Source: an uncultured Thermoprotei archaeon (GTDB lineage: Archaea > Thermoproteota > Thermoprotei > Thermofilales > B15-G2). Taken from it: a stretch of 64,000 nucleotides of DNA. The position numbers and the translations under genes are program-made. Below the pieces are notes generated by a model. It was not told where the DNA came from. It saw only the letters and a program-made list of their open reading frames with translations, and did no database searches. The stretch's first letter is position 1; each line of letters starts with the position of its first letter. The stretch covers positions 128,001 through 192,000 of the forward strand of contig CBDUKN010000001.1 in NCBI GenBank assembly GCA_965367815.1, written 5' to 3'. This document shows, in pieces, positions 44,144 to 48,375 of the stretch.

Positions 44144-45115
44144 TTAGTAAGTCTTTCCTGTGAGAGAAGCTATTGTCGGCGAGTTTACTCCAGTTGCTAT
44201 AAACATTATCTTTGGGTACTGTAACCCTTTCTCTAGTCTTAGGCCCCAGAATGTTCTCTCAATCTTATACTTACTTGTTATTATTTGGTTGGCGGCAGAT
44301 GCCTCTTCTAGAGTAGTTTTCTCAGGAGCTACTACATATATTAGAGCTGACTCAGCGTCACTGAGGTCTGCGTCAAGTAGCTTGTTTTTTATGGCATTGT
44401 TTGCCGCTTCAGATACTTTGAGTCCTACACCGTGTCCCACCATTCCTAGTCCAGAGTCTCTGCATGCCGAAATAATGTCTGCGTAGCTGATGCTAATTAA
44501 GCTTGGTTTTGTAACTAAGTCAATAATGGACTTAAGAGTACTTACAAGTATTGAGTCCATAAACTTGAAAGCGAAGTTTACTGGAATTCCTCCTATCTTA
44601 TTTAGTAGTATATCGTTTAAGTTTGTTATTGTTAAGTCTGCTACGTCAAGTATTTTAGTTAACCCGTATCTAGCGTTGTCGAGACGATTCACTCCTTCGA
44701 ATGTGAAGGGTAGTGTTACTAGTGCTATTCTTAGTGCGTCTGGGAATCTGTTTCTTAGTTCTTCTAGTAGTACTGGTATTCCTCCGCTTGCTGTACCACC
44801 ACCAAGACCACCAGTAACAATGACTACATTAGGAACTCCGATTGAGTTAATTATGCGGCTTACATCGTCTCTCATTGCTGCTTCTCCTAGACTTGGGTTT
44901 CCTCCTGTTCCATGTCCTCTTGTTATTGTTTGCCCAATTAATATTTTATTGGGTACTTTAACTGACTGTAAGTGAACAGCCTCAGTATGAACAGCAACAG
45001 CTAAAACATCTTCAGTAGCACCAACCTCATACAACCTATTCAAAGTATTACAACCACAACCACCAACACCGACAACAACTATGTTTATTCTCTCCCCCAT
45101 TGTTTCACCCCTCAA
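44144..45115 (-). CDS. ftsZ: Divergent FtsZ/tubulin-family GTPase, paralog 3
   Basis: GVGGCGCN, GHGTGGNP, GGLGGGTASGG, PFTFEG; T7 loop SLISISYAD. Confidence 0.88.
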   Translation of the reverse strand: MRGETMGERINIVVVGVGGCGCNTLNRLYEVGATEDVLAVAVHTEAVHLQSVKVPNKILIGQTITRGHGTGGNPSLGEAAMRDDVSRIINSIGVPNVVIVTGGLGGGTASGGIPVLLEELRNRFPDALRIALVTLPFTFEGVNRLDNARYGLTKILDVADLTITNLNDILLNKIGGIPVNFAFKFMDSILVSTLKSIIDLVTKPSLISISYADIISACRDSGLGMVGHGVGLKVSEAANNAIKNKLLDADLSDAESALIYVVAPEKTTLEEASAANQIITSKYKIERTFWGLRLEKGLQYPKIMFIATGVNSPTIASLTGKTY

Positions 45116-46034
45116 TGAATTTTGTTACCATATCAGATTTAACATTTGTTGCTATAAACCCTACTTTCGGAGACTGTACTGCCCAAGTTGGCTTGAATCC
45201 GAAATACGCGTTTACCACATTGTATTTGCTTGTTATTGTTCCTTGGATATCGAAGATATCTGATGTGCTTAAAGCAGTCTCAGTGCTTTCTACAACTACT
45301 ATTGCTCCTCTTGCATCTTTAAAGTTTAGTTCACAGTAAGGGCTCTCACAGGCCTTGATAAAGGCTTCTCTTACATTAAGTCCTTCGCCTAGCCCTATAA
45401 AGCCTAGACCTGACTTAACTGCTATTGACTTGAATACATTGAAGTCTACGTTCATTAGTCCAGGTATAGGTGTAATTTGATCCAGTGCTTTCAGTACGTA
45501 GATAGCATTTGCTATCAGTTTGTCTAAAGTACGGTATGCTCTAGGTAGAGCCATAGTTGGGTGCTTTTCTTTGAGTTTATCGTTAAAGTGTACTATAGTC
45601 ATATCCGATGATTCTATTATTTGAGGTAGAGCAGTTTTAGCATTGTTTATTCTTGGAAGAGCTTCTGTTCTGAAAGGTATAGTTACAAAAGATACTACTA
45701 GCGTATCTAACTGACTCTTAATGTTTTCTACTAGAACAGAGTGTCCTCCGCTACCTGTTCCTCCACCTAAGCCAGAGATTACAACTACTAGCTCAGAGCC
45801 TTCAATTCTCTCAACAATTTTTGGAACTAAGTTTTCGACAGCTTTTCTGCCAAGCTCCATTGAGCCCGCAGTAGATCTTCCTTCACCTACCTGCAGGACA
45901 TACTTAGCTTTAGCCGTTTTAAGAGCTAGGGAATCGGTATCTACAGCTATTGTTGTCAGGTCTTTTATATCTAGTGCAATATTGTTAAGGGCGTTTAGTC
46001 CTCTACCGCCTATACCTATTACTGATATCTTCAT
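45105..46034 (-). CDS. ftsZ: Divergent FtsZ/tubulin-family GTPase, paralog 2
   Basis: GIGGRGLN, SGLGGGTGSGG, PFRTEA; T7 loop GLMNVDFNV. Confidence 0.88.
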   Translation of the reverse strand: MKISVIGIGGRGLNALNNIALDIKDLTTIAVDTDSLALKTAKAKYVLQVGEGRSTAGSMELGRKAVENLVPKIVERIEGSELVVVISGLGGGTGSGGHSVLVENIKSQLDTLVVSFVTIPFRTEALPRINNAKTALPQIIESSDMTIVHFNDKLKEKHPTMALPRAYRTLDKLIANAIYVLKALDQITPIPGLMNVDFNVFKSIAVKSGLGFIGLGEGLNVREAFIKACESPYCELNFKDARGAIVVVESTETALSTSDIFDIQGTITSKYNVVNAYFGFKPTWAVQSPKVGFIATNVKSDMVTKFIEG

Positions 46035-46035
46035 A

Positions 46036-47043
46036 CTATCTCGCCTCCAGGAATTGTTCTACTAAGGGGGATTTAACACTTGCCACTAATAACATTACTT
46101 GCGGATTGTGCACCCTCCAATTATACCTGACGCCCCAATACACAGTGCCTATACCGTATTTTTCACTGAGTATTCTTGGGACTTCCTCAATTTCTCTAAG
46201 GGAAAGCATGCTTCTAGTGCCTTCAGCGTAAACTACAGCTCCCCTAGCACCACTTAAGTCTGCTTCACAGTAGTTTTTAGCTAGAGCTTCTTCAAATGCG
46301 TCAATAAAGCGCAGGCCAGAGCCTATGCCAACAAAGCCGAGTCCACTTTCTCTCGTTAATCTCTCGATGTTAGAGAAGTCTATATTAACTAAACCTGGCT
46401 CAGGTTTGAGTCCCTGCAGCTTAGTTAATCCATTAATTAAATCTACTAGGTGTTTATCCATTTCTCTAAATGCCTGTTGAATGCTATATGCGCCTACTTT
46501 TTCCTTAAGAATATCATTAAAGTTAACTAAAGTCATATCAGCTAAATCGAGTAACTCAGATAGAGCCATTTGAGCATTCTGGATACGTTCAATACCTTCT
46601 GAGGAGAAGGGTATTGTTACTACTGCCCAGACAAGTCTATTCTTCATGTTTTCTTTTATGTATTCTGCTAGTGCTAGTATTCCTCCTGTTCCTGTACCGC
46701 CGCCGAGACCAGCAGTAAGAATATACAGCTCAGCATCCTTGACTGGGGCAAGGACTTTGTCTACTTCGCGGCTCATTATCTCTCTACCAAGAGCAGGACT
46801 ACCAGCACTACCACGACCACGAGTAACAGTCTCACCAATCAATACACGGTACTTAGCTCTAGTCACACTTAAGGCTGCTGCGTCAGTATTTACAGCAACT
46901 GTAGGTACTTGTATTCCAGCATTAGTTAAGTTAGTTATGGTGTTACATCCACATCCTCCTATACCGATTATGGCCATTTTTAAAATCGCTCTCCTTGCTA
47001 ATGTTTCGGCAAGTGTTCTGTCTTCAATAAATCTCCTCGACAC
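46036..47043 (-). CDS. ftsZ: Divergent FtsZ/tubulin-family GTPase, paralog 1
   Basis: GIGGCGCN, VNTD, AGLGGGTGTGG, PFSSEG; T7 loop GLVNIDFSN. Confidence 0.9.
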   Translation of the reverse strand: MSRRFIEDRTLAETLARRAILKMAIIGIGGCGCNTITNLTNAGIQVPTVAVNTDAAALSVTRAKYRVLIGETVTRGRGSAGSPALGREIMSREVDKVLAPVKDAELYILTAGLGGGTGTGGILALAEYIKENMKNRLVWAVVTIPFSSEGIERIQNAQMALSELLDLADMTLVNFNDILKEKVGAYSIQQAFREMDKHLVDLINGLTKLQGLKPEPGLVNIDFSNIERLTRESGLGFVGIGSGLRFIDAFEEALAKNYCEADLSGARGAVVYAEGTRSMLSLREIEEVPRILSEKYGIGTVYWGVRYNWRVHNPQVMLLVASVKSPLVEQFLEAR

Positions 47044-47127
47044 GTATATTACCTTGAAATAACTTTAAAAACTTTGCCGTTAATCTTATGTGCACTTGGA
47101 ATCTCTTAAAAATAGCCGAAGTATGTT

Positions 47128-48375
47128 TTATAGTCTTGAAATAACTTCGAAATTTTCTTCGGGAGTATTACTGAATGAAAAGAAATATAGTCCCTTGGGA
47201 TTGATCTTGAGAGCTTCTTTAATCGCGTCGAGTAGTCTCCTCGGAGGATTATACACTATGCTTGGATCATATCCTGAGTAAAGACCTACATATATTCTGG
47301 AGGGGTCGATGTATTCTGCCACCTTTAGAGCTTCTCTTGAAGCTATTTCAGGTGGAAGACCATAGTACTCGAAGTCTTTAACGCTACTAGGCTTATTTAC
47401 TCCAAGCAAATGCGATATTGTCTCAAGTAGTAGATCTTCGTACTCCCATCCTACTCGGTCTAGTATTGACTTAATGTACTTTGTCTCCCAGGCACCCATT
47501 CTAGCAGTATATATCATAGGCTTAACTGTATCCAAGACTTCTCTGAGGAGAGAGTAGTCTTGTCCCACCTGCCAGGAGAGAGTAGGATAGAAGAGGTCTG
47601 CACTCAAAGCGACGCCGCTTTTTTCGACACTTTCCTTAATGAAAGCTATGAGTTCTTTTACGCTTTCTGCTCTGAAGCGAAGCCAGTCTGCTACTTCAGG
47701 ATGCTCTAAGTAAAATCTGTTTAAGTCTCCAGTGCTGCCGAGGAACATTTTTAGATACTTTAAGTTTTCGTGGCTAGTTTCAGATATTGTTTTAAACATT
47801 TCGATAATTTTTTCGAAAGATTTCCAATCTAATCCTTTTTCTACTGCTTTTTCTCTGCAGAAACTACAGTAGCAGTGACGCCCTATTAGCAGGTGTGTTG
47901 GCAGAAGAAATCCTTCGCGGCTACGCTTAAACCTAATGTAGTCTAACTCAACTTCATCTACCTCATATTCGTAGGCAATATTTTCGGCTAGTCCTCTGAG
48001 GTACTTTTGGACATCAGGATTGTTTGGGCACAAGGCTCTGGGGTGCGGGCTTCCTCTAAAGTCTATTAATCTGCATTCAGGGTTCTTTTCTGCATGAAGA
48101 GGGTCTACTACACAGACCACAGTGGCAGTAAGCTTTAATCCATATTCTCTTGAAGCCTCGACACACTCCGCTAAAAGATCTCTTTTACAGCCTTTTACGG
48201 GCTTAAGTTTAGTTTCGGTAAAATATTTGTCTTTAGGCTTGAAAAACACTTTACCTTCAGCTACTACGAATATAGATGCTCTCGAAACATTGTATTTAGC
48301 TAGTTTCTCGAAGACCTTATCGGCGGTTTTCTCGTAAATATCTCTCCAGCTTACCCAGAACCCTACTTCAACCAC
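47128..48375 (-). CDS. Putative glycoside hydrolase, GHL10/DUF187-like TIM barrel
   Basis: LCPNNPDVQKY, YEVDEVELDYIRF, CYCSFC, PMIY. Confidence 0.7.
   Translation of the reverse strand: MVEVGFWVSWRDIYEKTADKVFEKLAKYNVSRASIFVVAEGKVFFKPKDKYFTETKLKPVKGCKRDLLAECVEASREYGLKLTATVVCVVDPLHAEKNPECRLIDFRGSPHPRALCPNNPDVQKYLRGLAENIAYEYEVDEVELDYIRFKRSREGFLLPTHLLIGRHCYCSFCREKAVEKGLDWKSFEKIIEMFKTISETSHENLKYLKMFLGSTGDLNRFYLEHPEVADWLRFRAESVKELIAFIKESVEKSGVALSADLFYPTLSWQVGQDYSLLREVLDTVKPMIYTARMGAWETKYIKSILDRVGWEYEDLLLETISHLLGVNKPSSVKDFEYYGLPPEIASREALKVAEYIDPSRIYVGLYSGYDPSIVYNPPRRLLDAIKEALKINPKGLYFFSFSNTPEENFEVISRL

Follow-up and report, generated by a model that had tools for sequence, protein, structure and literature searches.

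Can FtsZ-like proteins work together when none of them has a complete catalytic loop? This question is raised by three adjacent genes in the window (the whole 64,000-nucleotide stretch of archaeal DNA analysed here), each of which encodes an FtsZ-like protein with an altered T7 loop. According to the accessible text of 10.1101/677963, mutation of D209 or D212 severely impairs the GTPase of E. coli FtsZ. In the accessible part of 10.1101/2020.06.04.133736, either H. volcanii FtsZ, when its T7 Asp is mutated to Ala, leaves the division defects uncomplemented and inhibits division in a wild-type background. Our reading, which we give an even chance of being right, is that the proteins are obligate co-assembling paralogs whose filaments would combine hydrolysing and non-hydrolysing interfaces, as an FtsZ-derived analogue of alpha/beta-tubulin that probably serves cell division; co-assembly, the identity of the GTP-hydrolysing interfaces and the cellular role are what we infer.

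The FtsZ-like triplet and its T7 loops

All three proteins match the Tubulin/FtsZ GTPase domain PF00091 (112.5, 94.0 and 120.9 bits for genes 1, 2 and 3; gathering cut-off 33), and all three stay below the cut-off of 295.2 bits of the FtsZ equivalog model TIGR00065 (188.5, 148.1 and 227.4 bits). With the C-terminal model PF12327 (FtsZ_C, cut-off 27), the scores are 39.9 bits for gene 3 and 22.9 bits for gene 1, with no match for gene 2. The best PDB match of gene 1 is M. jannaschii FtsZ (E 1.1e-49, residues 7–325). In the alignment, the family proteins (309–345 aa) stop a few residues past the globular domain, lacking the C-terminal linker and conserved peptide, and the canonical FtsZ references run further C-terminally.

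Tubulin proper was rejected, as FtsZ matches with an E-value of 1.1e-49 and PDB tubulin chains with 2e-4 to 1e-3. A TubZ/RepX system for mobile-element segregation was likewise rejected, since RepX (4EI7) matches at only 3.2e-7 and housekeeping genes surround both clusters of the genome; those next to the triplet encode endonuclease III, an ATP-cone protein, glycosyl hydrolases and an ATP-grasp protein.

The gene layout (Table 1) indicates that the triplet is translationally coupled. The stop codon of gene 1 (TAG, 46036–46038) and the ATG of gene 2 (46032–46034) are one base apart, and 4 nt separate the gene 2 stop from the ATG of gene 3; together with the Shine-Dalgarno-like sites inside the upstream gene, this spacing argues for co-expression. 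The reading frame of gene 3 is open from a TTG at 45115, and the downstream ATG at 45100 is the most likely start. The TATA-like element upstream of gene 1 is a candidate archaeal promoter, which would give a near-leaderless triplet transcript. A scan for bacterial-type promoters, which is not applicable to archaea, showed no enrichment (8 found, 8.7 expected).

Table 1 Features of the triplet in window coordinates.
Feature	Position	Strand	Description
Gene 1	46036..47043	-	335 aa, GTG start, tail-less FtsZ-like, class C
Gene 2	45105..46034	-	309 aa, tail-less FtsZ-like, class D
Gene 3	44144..45100	-	318 aa from ATG 45100, tail-less FtsZ-like, class E
Gene 1 T7 loop GLVNIDFSN	46369..46395	-	D212 equivalent is Asn; state N-D-N
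Gene 2 T7 loop GLMNVDFNV	45435..45461	-	D212 equivalent is Val; state N-D-V
Gene 3 T7 loop SLISISYAD	44477..44503	-	Ser at the N207 and D209 equivalents, that of D212 retained; state S-S-D
TATA-like element TTTTTAAAG	47063..47071	-	about 20–28 nt upstream of gene 1 GTG
GGAGG, Shine-Dalgarno-like	46044..46048	-	within gene 1 end
GAGGGGTGA, Shine-Dalgarno-like	45105..45113	-	includes gene 2 stop; 4 nt before gene 3 ATG 45100
362-nt tract	44718..45079		identical to C25 14586-14947 (class E gene); spans T1-T4 half of gene 3
214-nt tract	46645..46858		identical to C25 16799-17012 (class C gene); spans T3-T4 of gene 1

The T7 positions N207, D209 and D212 were numbered by alignment to the annotated E. 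coli K-12 FtsZ record. The three T7 motifs reported in the preliminary description are all present where it placed them, and its observation that no copy has an intact T7 extends to all eight FtsZ-like genes of the genome, of which it had counted three. The pocket of gene 2 is the most altered of the triplet (T1 GIGGRGLN, T3 GRSTAG), and in gene 3 T2 reads HTE in place of NTD and T4 reads GGGTASG; the T1 arginine and both gene 3 substitutions had been noted before and are confirmed by the sequence. The T3 loop of gene 2 had been described as about 4 aa shorter: the gap is real, but it comprises six residues and immediately precedes the T3 glycine. Only the window copy and the orthologue from the same genus have it, other class D members being of normal length. 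In the family alignment the G-box GGGTG(T/S)G and the T1 and T6 motifs are largely retained, and most GTP-binding motifs are kept in every class.

Eight paralogs and their class-specific T7 states

The genome (99.4% complete, 1.76% contamination) contains eight PF00091 matches, all members of this family with intact frames, and canonical or full-length FtsZ is absent. On contig C25, seven genes that overlap or lie 4–10 nt apart form an operon in the order A, B, sX, C, PRC-barrel, D, E, in which A to E are classes of the FtsZ-like family, and a pyruvate-kinase-like protein (recognised by eye from its translation) adjoins the cluster. The window triplet is a C-D-E module that arose by genus-level duplication of the three final FtsZ genes of this operon, with gene 1 assigned to class C from trees. 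G001, G003, G057 and G287 and the metagenome contigs L033, L034 and L037 share the order A-B-sX-(C)-(PRC)-(D)-E. The cluster is rare, occurring in 4 of the 120 genomes of the class.

The PRC-barrel gene between C and D on C25 encodes 79 aa (PF05239, 37.2 bits against a cut-off of 21.2, 3e-9) and has a homologue at the same position in G001; at this position L034 and L037 carry an 85-aa frame that looks PRC-barrel-like by eye. The window triplet lacks the gene. The small protein sX has no Pfam match at E≤1, and its AlphaFold model (mean pLDDT 83.7) consists of four helices over residues 25–96 and a disordered basic N-terminus. The model gave no Foldseek match in the PDB at E≤0.001 and no usable feature match in the ESM Atlas, where only unnamed clusters reached a TM-score of about 0.5. 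The best VIA-align hit among 48,161 chains, the N-terminal helical part of an archaeal MCM, has a Z of 6.3, within the range of common helical arrangements.

Two tracts of the triplet are 100% identical to C25 (Table 1); the flanks of the 362-nt tract have 57–77% identity, and we read both as gene-conversion tracts. In principle such identity could also come from a chimeric assembly and, together with the many paralogs with broken catalytic motifs and the NCBI annotation of their relatives as 'hypothetical protein', could suggest duplicates that decay as selection relaxes, or an artefact of assembly or contamination. We regard this as highly improbable, given the eight intact frames, the completeness and low contamination of the genome, and the recurrence of the same classes in five genomes and three further metagenome contigs. 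The orthologues are under strong purifying selection: for the seven pairs between this genome and G001 (84–94% protein identity) dN/dS is 0.018–0.059 at saturated synonymous sites (pS 0.57–0.74). The dN/dS check that the preliminary description had proposed thus shows no relaxed selection.

We surveyed the T7 states in five genomes, which span different families and classes, and in three independent metagenome contigs. The state is fixed per class, and the random variation among orthologues that had been named as evidence against a functional partition was not seen. Class A has R/H-D-D in 6/6 members, class B N-D-N in 6/7 (the exception, in G287, is S-D-D), class C N-D-N in 5/5, class D N-D-(V/S/M) in 6/6 and class E (S/G)-(S/G)-D in 8/8; with the metagenome contigs included, Ile also occurs in class D. 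The canonical N-D-D is present in 39 of 40 canonical FtsZ representatives of the same alignment and in none of the 34 family members. The 14 further frames on L033, L034 and L037 also lack it (0/48 for the total family) and fit the same classes, save one class C sequence with S-D-N. The loss of N-D-D is therefore not a matter of chance.

In a careful maximum-likelihood tree the family A–E is supported at 99/97, A+E at 96/93 and B+C+D+X at 100/99. D212 is kept in 14/14 members of A+E and lost in 19/20 of B/C/D/X, the loss not being universal on that side because of the S-D-D of G287; the metagenome contigs agree, with D212 present in 6/6 of A+E and missing from 8/8 on the B/C/D side. The deepest split of the family thus separates D212-keepers, which lack N207, from D212-losers. 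As the nearest outgroup, four tail-less FtsZ sequences, has N-D-D in 3/4, the T7 losses are derived. In the trees, whose sequences include no labelled CetZ, the family groups with archaeal FtsZ-like sequences. The class-specific states, the purifying selection and this split give partial support to the earlier interpretation that hydrolysing and non-hydrolysing interfaces may alternate. The 'complementary' loss that had been proposed for the triplet does not hold as residues of different subunits combining, since a single T7 loop enters each interface and every interface consequently has an incomplete loop.

For the nucleotide pocket we considered the N-domain, in which 33 positions are conserved to 90% or more among canonical FtsZ. 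Class C has lost 2 of them, B 4, A and E 5 each and D 7, counts that include F99 and A117, which differ clade-wide. T2 (N43/D45) is altered in E and most A, and NTD is kept in B and C. The comparison shows a modest trend in which pocket alteration varies inversely with T7 state.

Proposed mixed filaments and alternative assemblies

In the mechanism that we propose, the four or five classes of this lineage-specific tail-less family, encoded in one operon with a PRC-barrel protein and sX, would form mixed protofilaments in which subunits follow one another head-to-tail. GTP would stay bound and unhydrolysed wherever B, C or D inserts its T7 loop into the neighbour's pocket, producing a stable 'N-site-like' interface, and hydrolysis would be restricted to interfaces whose T7 is of type A (R/H-D-D) or perhaps of type E (S-S-D). 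Class A, the sole class with both aspartates, is absent from the window. Within the triplet, gene 3 (class E) would carry the only candidate catalytic T7, and gene 1 (class C), whose pocket is the least altered, would offer the most likely hydrolysable site. Class E, without the N207 and D209 equivalents, may be inactive too, in which case the whole window triplet would be non-hydrolysing. The operon and co-expression are no proof of co-assembly, and complex prediction for genes 1, 3 and 2 (three chains, 61-row alignments) gave an ipSAE of 0.00 in two runs without controls, which speaks neither for nor against it.

Each paralog could instead form its own homopolymer, with T7 loss leading to slow or non-hydrolysing static filaments that have separate jobs, in shape, division or positioning for instance. 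Most GTP-binding motifs are present in all classes, and the available part of 10.1101/2020.06.04.133736 describes hyper-stable filaments from T7 mutants of bacterial FtsZ and distinct functions for H. volcanii FtsZ1 and FtsZ2. We nevertheless find separate homopolymers unlikely: genes that are tightly coupled in translation and keep their order across distant genomes more typically encode the subunits of one complex, C, D and E were duplicated together as one module, and the D212 partition at the deepest split, with the reciprocal loss of N207, would be left without obvious reason.

The variability of class D at position 212 (V, S, M, I) looks, from the sequences, like simple loss of constraint rather than a designed interface. 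It would also suit a scheme in which the dead-T7 paralogs B, C and D are regulators that, like native dominant-negative caps or stabilisers, add to the ends of filaments of A and/or E or intersperse in them, in no fixed stoichiometry, and tune their turnover, and T7 point mutants that co-assemble with wild type and change its dynamics are described in the accessible portion of 10.1101/2020.06.04.133736. Regulation of this kind is doubtful in our view, as coupling suggests near-equal synthesis, the triplet would supply two 'caps' for each E, and such a role does not need three conserved classes under strong purifying selection along their whole length.

A further alternative is that all interfaces hydrolyse GTP, hot growth and the remaining polar residues being sufficient and the substitutions only slowing the rate. 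The Asn at 212 and the Ser at 207/209 are polar, the Arg/His of class A at 207 might even aid catalysis, and the MAG names of the relatives are of hydrothermal type. Against this, FtsZ of the hyperthermophile M. jannaschii, the best PDB match, retains GLINVDFAD. The Val, Ile or Met of class D at 212 cannot polarise water, and the E. coli D209 and D212 mutants, as far as the available text of 10.1101/677963 goes, are severely impaired. Hydrolysis at all interfaces is thus improbable, and mixed filaments remain the reading that we prefer.

Division genes and related systems

The genomes of this group are reported, in the accessible parts of PMC10120694 and PMC11188069, to lack FtsZ and ESCRT, their division mechanism being unknown, and PMC10120694, in the part available, describes PRC-barrel proteins as conserved archaeal division proteins. 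SepF, which according to the available text of PMC8178401 co-occurs systematically with FtsZ in Archaea, had no PF04472 match at E≤0.01 in any of five genomes (G000, which carries the window, G001, G003, G057 and G005), in a search whose control was positive in 7 of 14 genomes, among them all three FtsZ-bearing archaeal controls. Snf7 (ESCRT-III) had no match in 5/5 genomes, with a weak control whose sole positive, in Sulfolobus, scored below the cut-off. An orthologue of crenactin does occur (PDB 4cj7, E 1.5e-117). The PRC-barrel gene, the missing matches to canonical FtsZ, SepF and ESCRT-III, and the crenactin point to a possible role in division or envelope shaping; a cluster present in only 4 of 120 genomes cannot serve as the division machinery of the class in general.

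More tentatively, an alpha/beta-tubulin principle may have arisen independently from FtsZ in Thermoproteota, in an ordered heteropolymer with its own anchors and a division role. An ancestral pair, one catalytic (A/E) and one non-catalytic (B/C/D), would have grown into a set of four or five subunits, all obligate, of a polymer in which each repeat has only one or two hydrolysing interfaces and which may form a multi-stranded tubule or a ring. The PRC-barrel protein and sX, with its basic N-terminus, would anchor or organise this polymer instead of SepF, as the division machinery of crenactin-bearing archaea without canonical FtsZ or ESCRT-III; the Arg/His of class A at 207 may act as an arginine-finger-like T7 variant.

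The closest parallel is with alpha/beta-tubulin and the Asgard (Loki/Heimdall) tubulins, where, as in A+E against B/C/D, duplication was followed by retention or loss of the catalytic T7/H8 acid. In the accessible text of PMC13371889, a catalytic Glu in one branch and a Lys in the other predict and accompany obligate heterodimers of Asgard and eukaryotic tubulins, giving a non-hydrolysing intradimer and a hydrolysing interdimer site. In the present family, by contrast, Asn, Ser, Val, Met or Ile, and not Lys, stands in place of the lost Asp, the keepers have also lost N207 and class E also D209, and there are up to five classes instead of two. The key step from FtsZ-like homopolymers to alpha/beta-tubulin is the division of catalysis among paralogs. 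If our reading is true, the step would have been taken a second time within the FtsZ family proper, here by up to five classes, showing that it is repeatable and offering a simple prokaryotic system for the evolution of subunit order and interface-specific hydrolysis.

We did not find the operon described in the accessible literature on archaeal FtsZ paralogs, T7 loops or heteropolymers, where a published supplementary tree could contain these proteins; a literature search found no paper on FtsZ in Thermofilales and nothing relevant to PDB 8QZO and 8ONW. The family has been missed in cell-division gene surveys because annotation pipelines label its proteins hypothetical, and the conserved FtsZ-like/PRC-barrel operon offers a concrete candidate division machinery in some members of the group.

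Multiple FtsZ paralogs per genome are normal in archaea. Archaeal FtsZ (M. jannaschii FtsZ1, PDB 1FSZ/1W58; H. volcanii FtsZ1/FtsZ2) has the same fold family and provides the nearest sequence relatives, but the triplet scores below the FtsZ equivalog cut-off without the C-terminal linker and peptide, SepF is not matched, and four to five classes lie in one operon as opposed to two dispersed genes. The T7 aspartate is needed in both H. volcanii FtsZs, in the available part of 10.1101/2020.06.04.133736, whereas here N-D-D is incomplete throughout. The PRC-barrel gene inside the FtsZ operon (C25 and, by eye, L034 and L037) recalls Haloferax CdpB1/2, PRC-barrel proteins that work with SepF and FtsZ and act via SepF; here SepF is not matched and the triplet has no PRC-barrel gene. 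The truncated FtsZ proteins of Hyphomicrobiales are likewise duplicates without C-terminal parts, proposed in the accessible text of PMC13732431 to tune division; they are bacterial and have full-length FtsZ alongside, in contrast to this genome. CetZ proteins, too, are extra tail-less paralogs of the FtsZ/tubulin superfamily in multiple copies per archaeal genome. The PDB entries 4B46, 4B45 and 3ZID, which we take to be CetZ although their titles say FtsZ or tubulin/FtsZ, match at only 3e-15 to 1.7e-7.

Class-specific T7 loops in a tail-less FtsZ subfamily

The three FtsZ-like genes of the window (genes 1, 2 and 3; classes C, D and E) belong to a separate subfamily that derives from FtsZ, has no tail and has lost catalytic residues under selection, differently in each class. 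The genes of this subfamily share a conserved operon with the genes of a PRC-barrel protein and of sX, a small protein that is new. All three carry the tubulin/FtsZ GTPase domain PF00091 (112.5, 94.0 and 120.9 bits; cut-off 33) and fall short of the NCBI FtsZ equivalog (188.5, 148.1 and 227.4 versus a cut-off of 295.2); NCBI names the family members 'hypothetical protein'. The closest solved structure is M. jannaschii FtsZ (1W58/1FSZ; E 1.1e-49, residues 7-325 aligned), tubulin matches being far weaker (E only 2e-4 to 1e-3). The alignment shows that the paralogs are without the anchor-binding C-terminal tail.

As a reference for the T7 loop we used the annotated record of E. coli K-12 FtsZ, in which residues 203-214 read PGLMNVDFADVR. 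The equivalents of N207, D209 and D212 are N-D-N in gene 1, N-D-V in gene 2 and S-S-D in gene 3. Every motif quoted in the preliminary description is present in the window genes, and the shortening of T3 that it reported for gene 2 exists as well, as a gap of 6 residues directly before the T3 glycine rather than of about 4. This gap occurs only in the window copy and its same-genus orthologue.

The preliminary description had asked whether each substitution is fixed per paralog; across 34 sequences the T7 states are indeed class-specific. N-D-D occurs in 0 of these 34 sequences, as opposed to 39 of 40 canonical FtsZ representatives and 3 of the 4 nearest tail-less outgroup proteins. The 14 ORFs of three metagenome contigs (L033, L034, L037) match the classes (A RDD; B NDN; C NDN/SDN; D NDV/NDI; E SSD), and none of them carries N-D-D. 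Seven orthologue pairs between the source genome and the same-genus genome G001, with 84–94% protein identity, give dN/dS of 0.018–0.059, a ratio that is only approximate since synonymous sites are saturated (pS 0.57–0.74); constraint is plainly strong all the same.

T7 states at positions 207/209/212 and conserved N-domain positions lost, by class
Class	n	T7 states	N-domain positions lost (of 33)
A	6	RDD 3, HDD 3	5
B	7	NDN 6, SDD 1 (genome G287)	4
C	5	NDN 5	2
D	6	NDV 3, NDS 2, NDM 1	7
E	8	SSD 5, GSD 2, SGD 1	5
X (long-branch, C/D-like)	2	ADH, RDT	7

Family history, nucleotide pockets and proposed interface types

In our careful tree (LG+C20, 54 rows), whose root was placed on E. coli FtsZ together with two representatives grouping with it, support for the A-E family is 99/97; three members are long branches (G057_X, G287_X, G287_B) and the outgroup rows are mostly unlabelled database representatives. 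The first split separates A+E (96/93) from B+C+D+X (100/99), in agreement with a quick 75-row tree. D212 is kept in 14/14 members of A+E and lost in 19/20 of B/C/D/X, while N207 is lost in 14/14 of the former and kept in 17/20 of the latter. The family is most simply explained by an ancestral pair, of which one member kept the H8 Asp and the other lost it, and which was later duplicated to A/B and (C,D)/E. Genomes G057 and G287 and contig L033 each have four FtsZ-like genes, two per branch.

For the nucleotide pockets, we compared the classes at those N-domain positions, 33 in all, whose conservation among 40 canonical FtsZ proteins reaches 90% or more. Classes B and C retain NTD and a normal G-box. 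Class E always has HTE in place of NTD and T4 GGGTASG; most members of class A have DTD, and in some a Lys replaces the T1 Asn. Class D has a changed, GRSTAG-like T3, with an Arg in T1 in the source genus. The dead-T7 classes B and C thus have the most canonical pockets, the keepers of D212 an altered T2, and class D alterations on both faces. This modest trend would be consistent with B/C pockets being hydrolysable sites and A/E pockets structural ones, as in beta- versus alpha-tubulin.

The E. coli GTPase is reported to suffer severely when D209 or D212 is mutated (10.1101/677963), and T7 Asp-to-Ala versions of both H. volcanii FtsZs do not complement division defects and inhibit division in the wild type (10.1101/2020.06.04.133736). 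For tubulins, Glu-keeping and Lys-bearing branches are described as predicting and accompanying obligate heterodimers with one hydrolysing site (PMC13371889). By analogy, the FtsZ-like paralogs may form mixed protofilaments, in which T7 loops of classes B, C and D would make stable non-hydrolysing interfaces and those of A type, possibly of E type too, hydrolysing ones; in the window triplet, each C-D-E unit would then contain no more than one hydrolysing interface. Each longitudinal interface has one T7 loop, so the losses that the preliminary description called complementary cannot add up to a full loop and instead define interface types. The observation in that description is confirmed, and its proposal of alternating hydrolysing and non-hydrolysing interfaces gains comparative support but is unproven; co-assembly, subunit order and activity are inferred. 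In class A, position 207 is Arg or His in 6/6 members and in 3/3 on metagenome contigs, as it also is in the outgroup protein P0149. Either residue would place a positive side chain beside the neighbour's phosphates, which suggests that an arginine-finger-like variant is possible.

The window triplet and the seven-gene cluster

PF00091 genes number eight over all 37 contigs of the source genome, which is 99.4% complete. Three lie in the window, five form a tandem array on contig C25, and none of the eight is a canonical FtsZ. The five on C25 (A to E) encode 329, 340, 338, 318 and 320 aa. Two small ORFs fill the apparent gaps between them, so that the cluster consists of seven genes with spacers of 4–10 nt or overlaps. 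One encodes sX (97 aa) and the other, between C and D, a 79-aa PRC-barrel protein (PF05239, 3e-9, 37.2 bits, cut-off 21.2; PDB matches to the PRC-barrel proteins 8QZO and 1PM3). The cluster lies downstream of a gene that by eye resembles pyruvate kinase.

Coordinates of the features (window positions, or contig and locus positions)
Feature	Location	Strand	Details
Genes 1, 2, 3	window 44144-47043	minus	consecutive ORFs, 335/309/323 aa
T7 loop, gene 3	window 44477-44503	minus	start of the span 44474-46396 in the preliminary description
T7 loop, gene 1	window 46369-46395	minus	end of the same span
Identical tract, gene 3	window 44718-45079; C25 14586-14947		362 nt
Identical tract, gene 1	window 46645-46858; C25 16799-17012		214 nt
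DUF4015 gene	window 47128-48375	minus	415 aa
Operon A-B-sX-C-PRC-D-E	C25 14012-19521 (loci L001, L013, L019)	minus	read from sequence
sX	C25 17203-17496 = L019:2505-2798	minus	between B and C
sX orthologues	L024:7943-8233; L022:7024-7299; L018:785-1093; L028:4416-4652; L033:3426-3689; L034:6455-6748		
Class A genes	C25 18532-19521; L024:5921-6907; L022:8330-9343; P0100, P0112, P0162; L033:1434-2420; L034:4399-5418		
Coiled-coil-like protein	C25 12061-12837; L026:2595-3350	minus	251-258 aa
C/D-like gene of G287	L028:3625-4419		264 aa
Same gene, metagenome contig	L035:1876-2805		309 aa
Actin homologue	contig C9 14775-16031 (L110:1276-2532)	minus	418 aa; PDB 4CJ7/5LY3/4BQL, ~1e-117

Window genes 1, 2 and 3 are paralogs of C25 C, D and E; neither sX nor the PRC-barrel gene accompanies them. 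In the careful maximum-likelihood tree, the window and C25 copies group as sisters and the orthologues of genome G003 branch outside them; thus, the triplet arose by duplication at roughly the level of genus or family. Two tracts are 100% DNA-identical between the clusters, with flanks at 57–77% identity, and are read as recent gene conversion across those halves of genes 3 and 1 that bind the nucleotide. Three contigs of G001 break off within the matching class-E genes; the two whose end was read do so at one and the same residue, which would be expected had this repeat interrupted the G001 assembly.

The triplet genes are tightly spaced. The gene 1 stop (TAG 46036-46038) lies one base from the gene 2 ATG, with GGAGG ten bases upstream, and the gene 2 stop (TGA 45105-45107) falls inside a GAGGGGTGA motif, with an ATG at 45100 four bases on, which orthologue comparison suggests is the likelier start of gene 3. 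A TTTTTAAAG element is located about 20–28 nt upstream of the gene 1 GTG. The triplet is flanked by housekeeping genes with no relation to it (DUF4015 glycosyl-hydrolase-like, endonuclease III, ATP-cone, GH57, CAAX-protease-like, ATP-grasp). The DUF4015 gene, between the endonuclease III gene and gene 1, is missing from the same site in G001 (L025), which indicates an insertion or deletion adjoining the cluster.

About 1.2 kb downstream of class E, both the source genome and G001 encode a protein in which inspection by eye suggests a coiled coil and, C-terminal to this, a winged-helix-like domain; it does not adjoin the clusters of G003, G057 and G287.

Cellular context and distribution

The sX proteins (78–102 aa) are always encoded between classes B and C. 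At the N-terminus they have a conserved basic stretch (M-x-LF-x-RKKK), which a Pro-rich linker joins to a confidently predicted four-helix domain. No Pfam family matched sX and structure searches returned no informative match; sX is a candidate adaptor or membrane tether. The source genome's actin homologue matches PDB 4CJ7/5LY3 with a best E of 1.5e-117. These entries are titled 'actin family protein', and we take them, with 4BQL, to be crenactin. On this identification, a crenactin cytoskeleton and eight FtsZ-like genes occur together in the genome. An actin-family gene is present in 5/5 genomes tested, and in the same five neither SepF nor Snf7 gave a match, the Snf7 control being weak. The same set of genes has been reported for Thermoproteales, which are described as having neither FtsZ nor ESCRT and as dividing by an unknown mechanism (PMC10120694, PMC11188069, PMC8178401). 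Through its PRC-barrel gene, the operon is connected with archaeal division (PMC10120694).

Our search of the literature on FtsZ, archaea and paralogs returned no description of the operon or of the catalytic partition. One phylogenomic study mentions divergent crenarchaeal FtsZs outside the canonical groups, and its supplements may include the family (PMC9871819).

Of 120 genomes from the taxonomic class of the source genome, 4 have multi-copy FtsZ-like clusters (the source genome, G001, G003 and G057), and 2 more have only weak matches inside long ORFs. In a phylum sample of 401 genomes, 90 have an FtsZ-like match at E<=1e-30, and at least four tandem genes are found only in the source genome, G057 and G287, the last of which has an additional, separate 386-aa FtsZ. 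A class-E profile scan of JGI metagenomes gave 80 loci, 8 with family genes and 72 with an ordinary single FtsZ; the 8 include three independent clusters, which read A-B-sX-C-E (L033) and A-B-sX-C-PRC-D-E (L034 and L037). Within the reach of a word index, a class-D query of a 5.8-billion-protein collection found only four relatives at 56% identity or more (the window protein itself, its C25 paralog and two G001 orthologues), then one class-B protein at 33% and ordinary FtsZ at up to 36%; sX, searched within the same bounds, formed six clusters.

The C/D-like gene of G287 has a longer counterpart on a metagenome contig that is 99–100% identical, the difference in length probably reflecting a frameshift or assembly error in one of them. 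Three database proteins, P0098 (826 aa), P0099 (840 aa) and P0101 (744 aa), are natural tandem-FtsZ fusions: each has two complete FtsZ domains per chain, joined by long low-complexity linkers, with the canonical N-D-D T7 in both.
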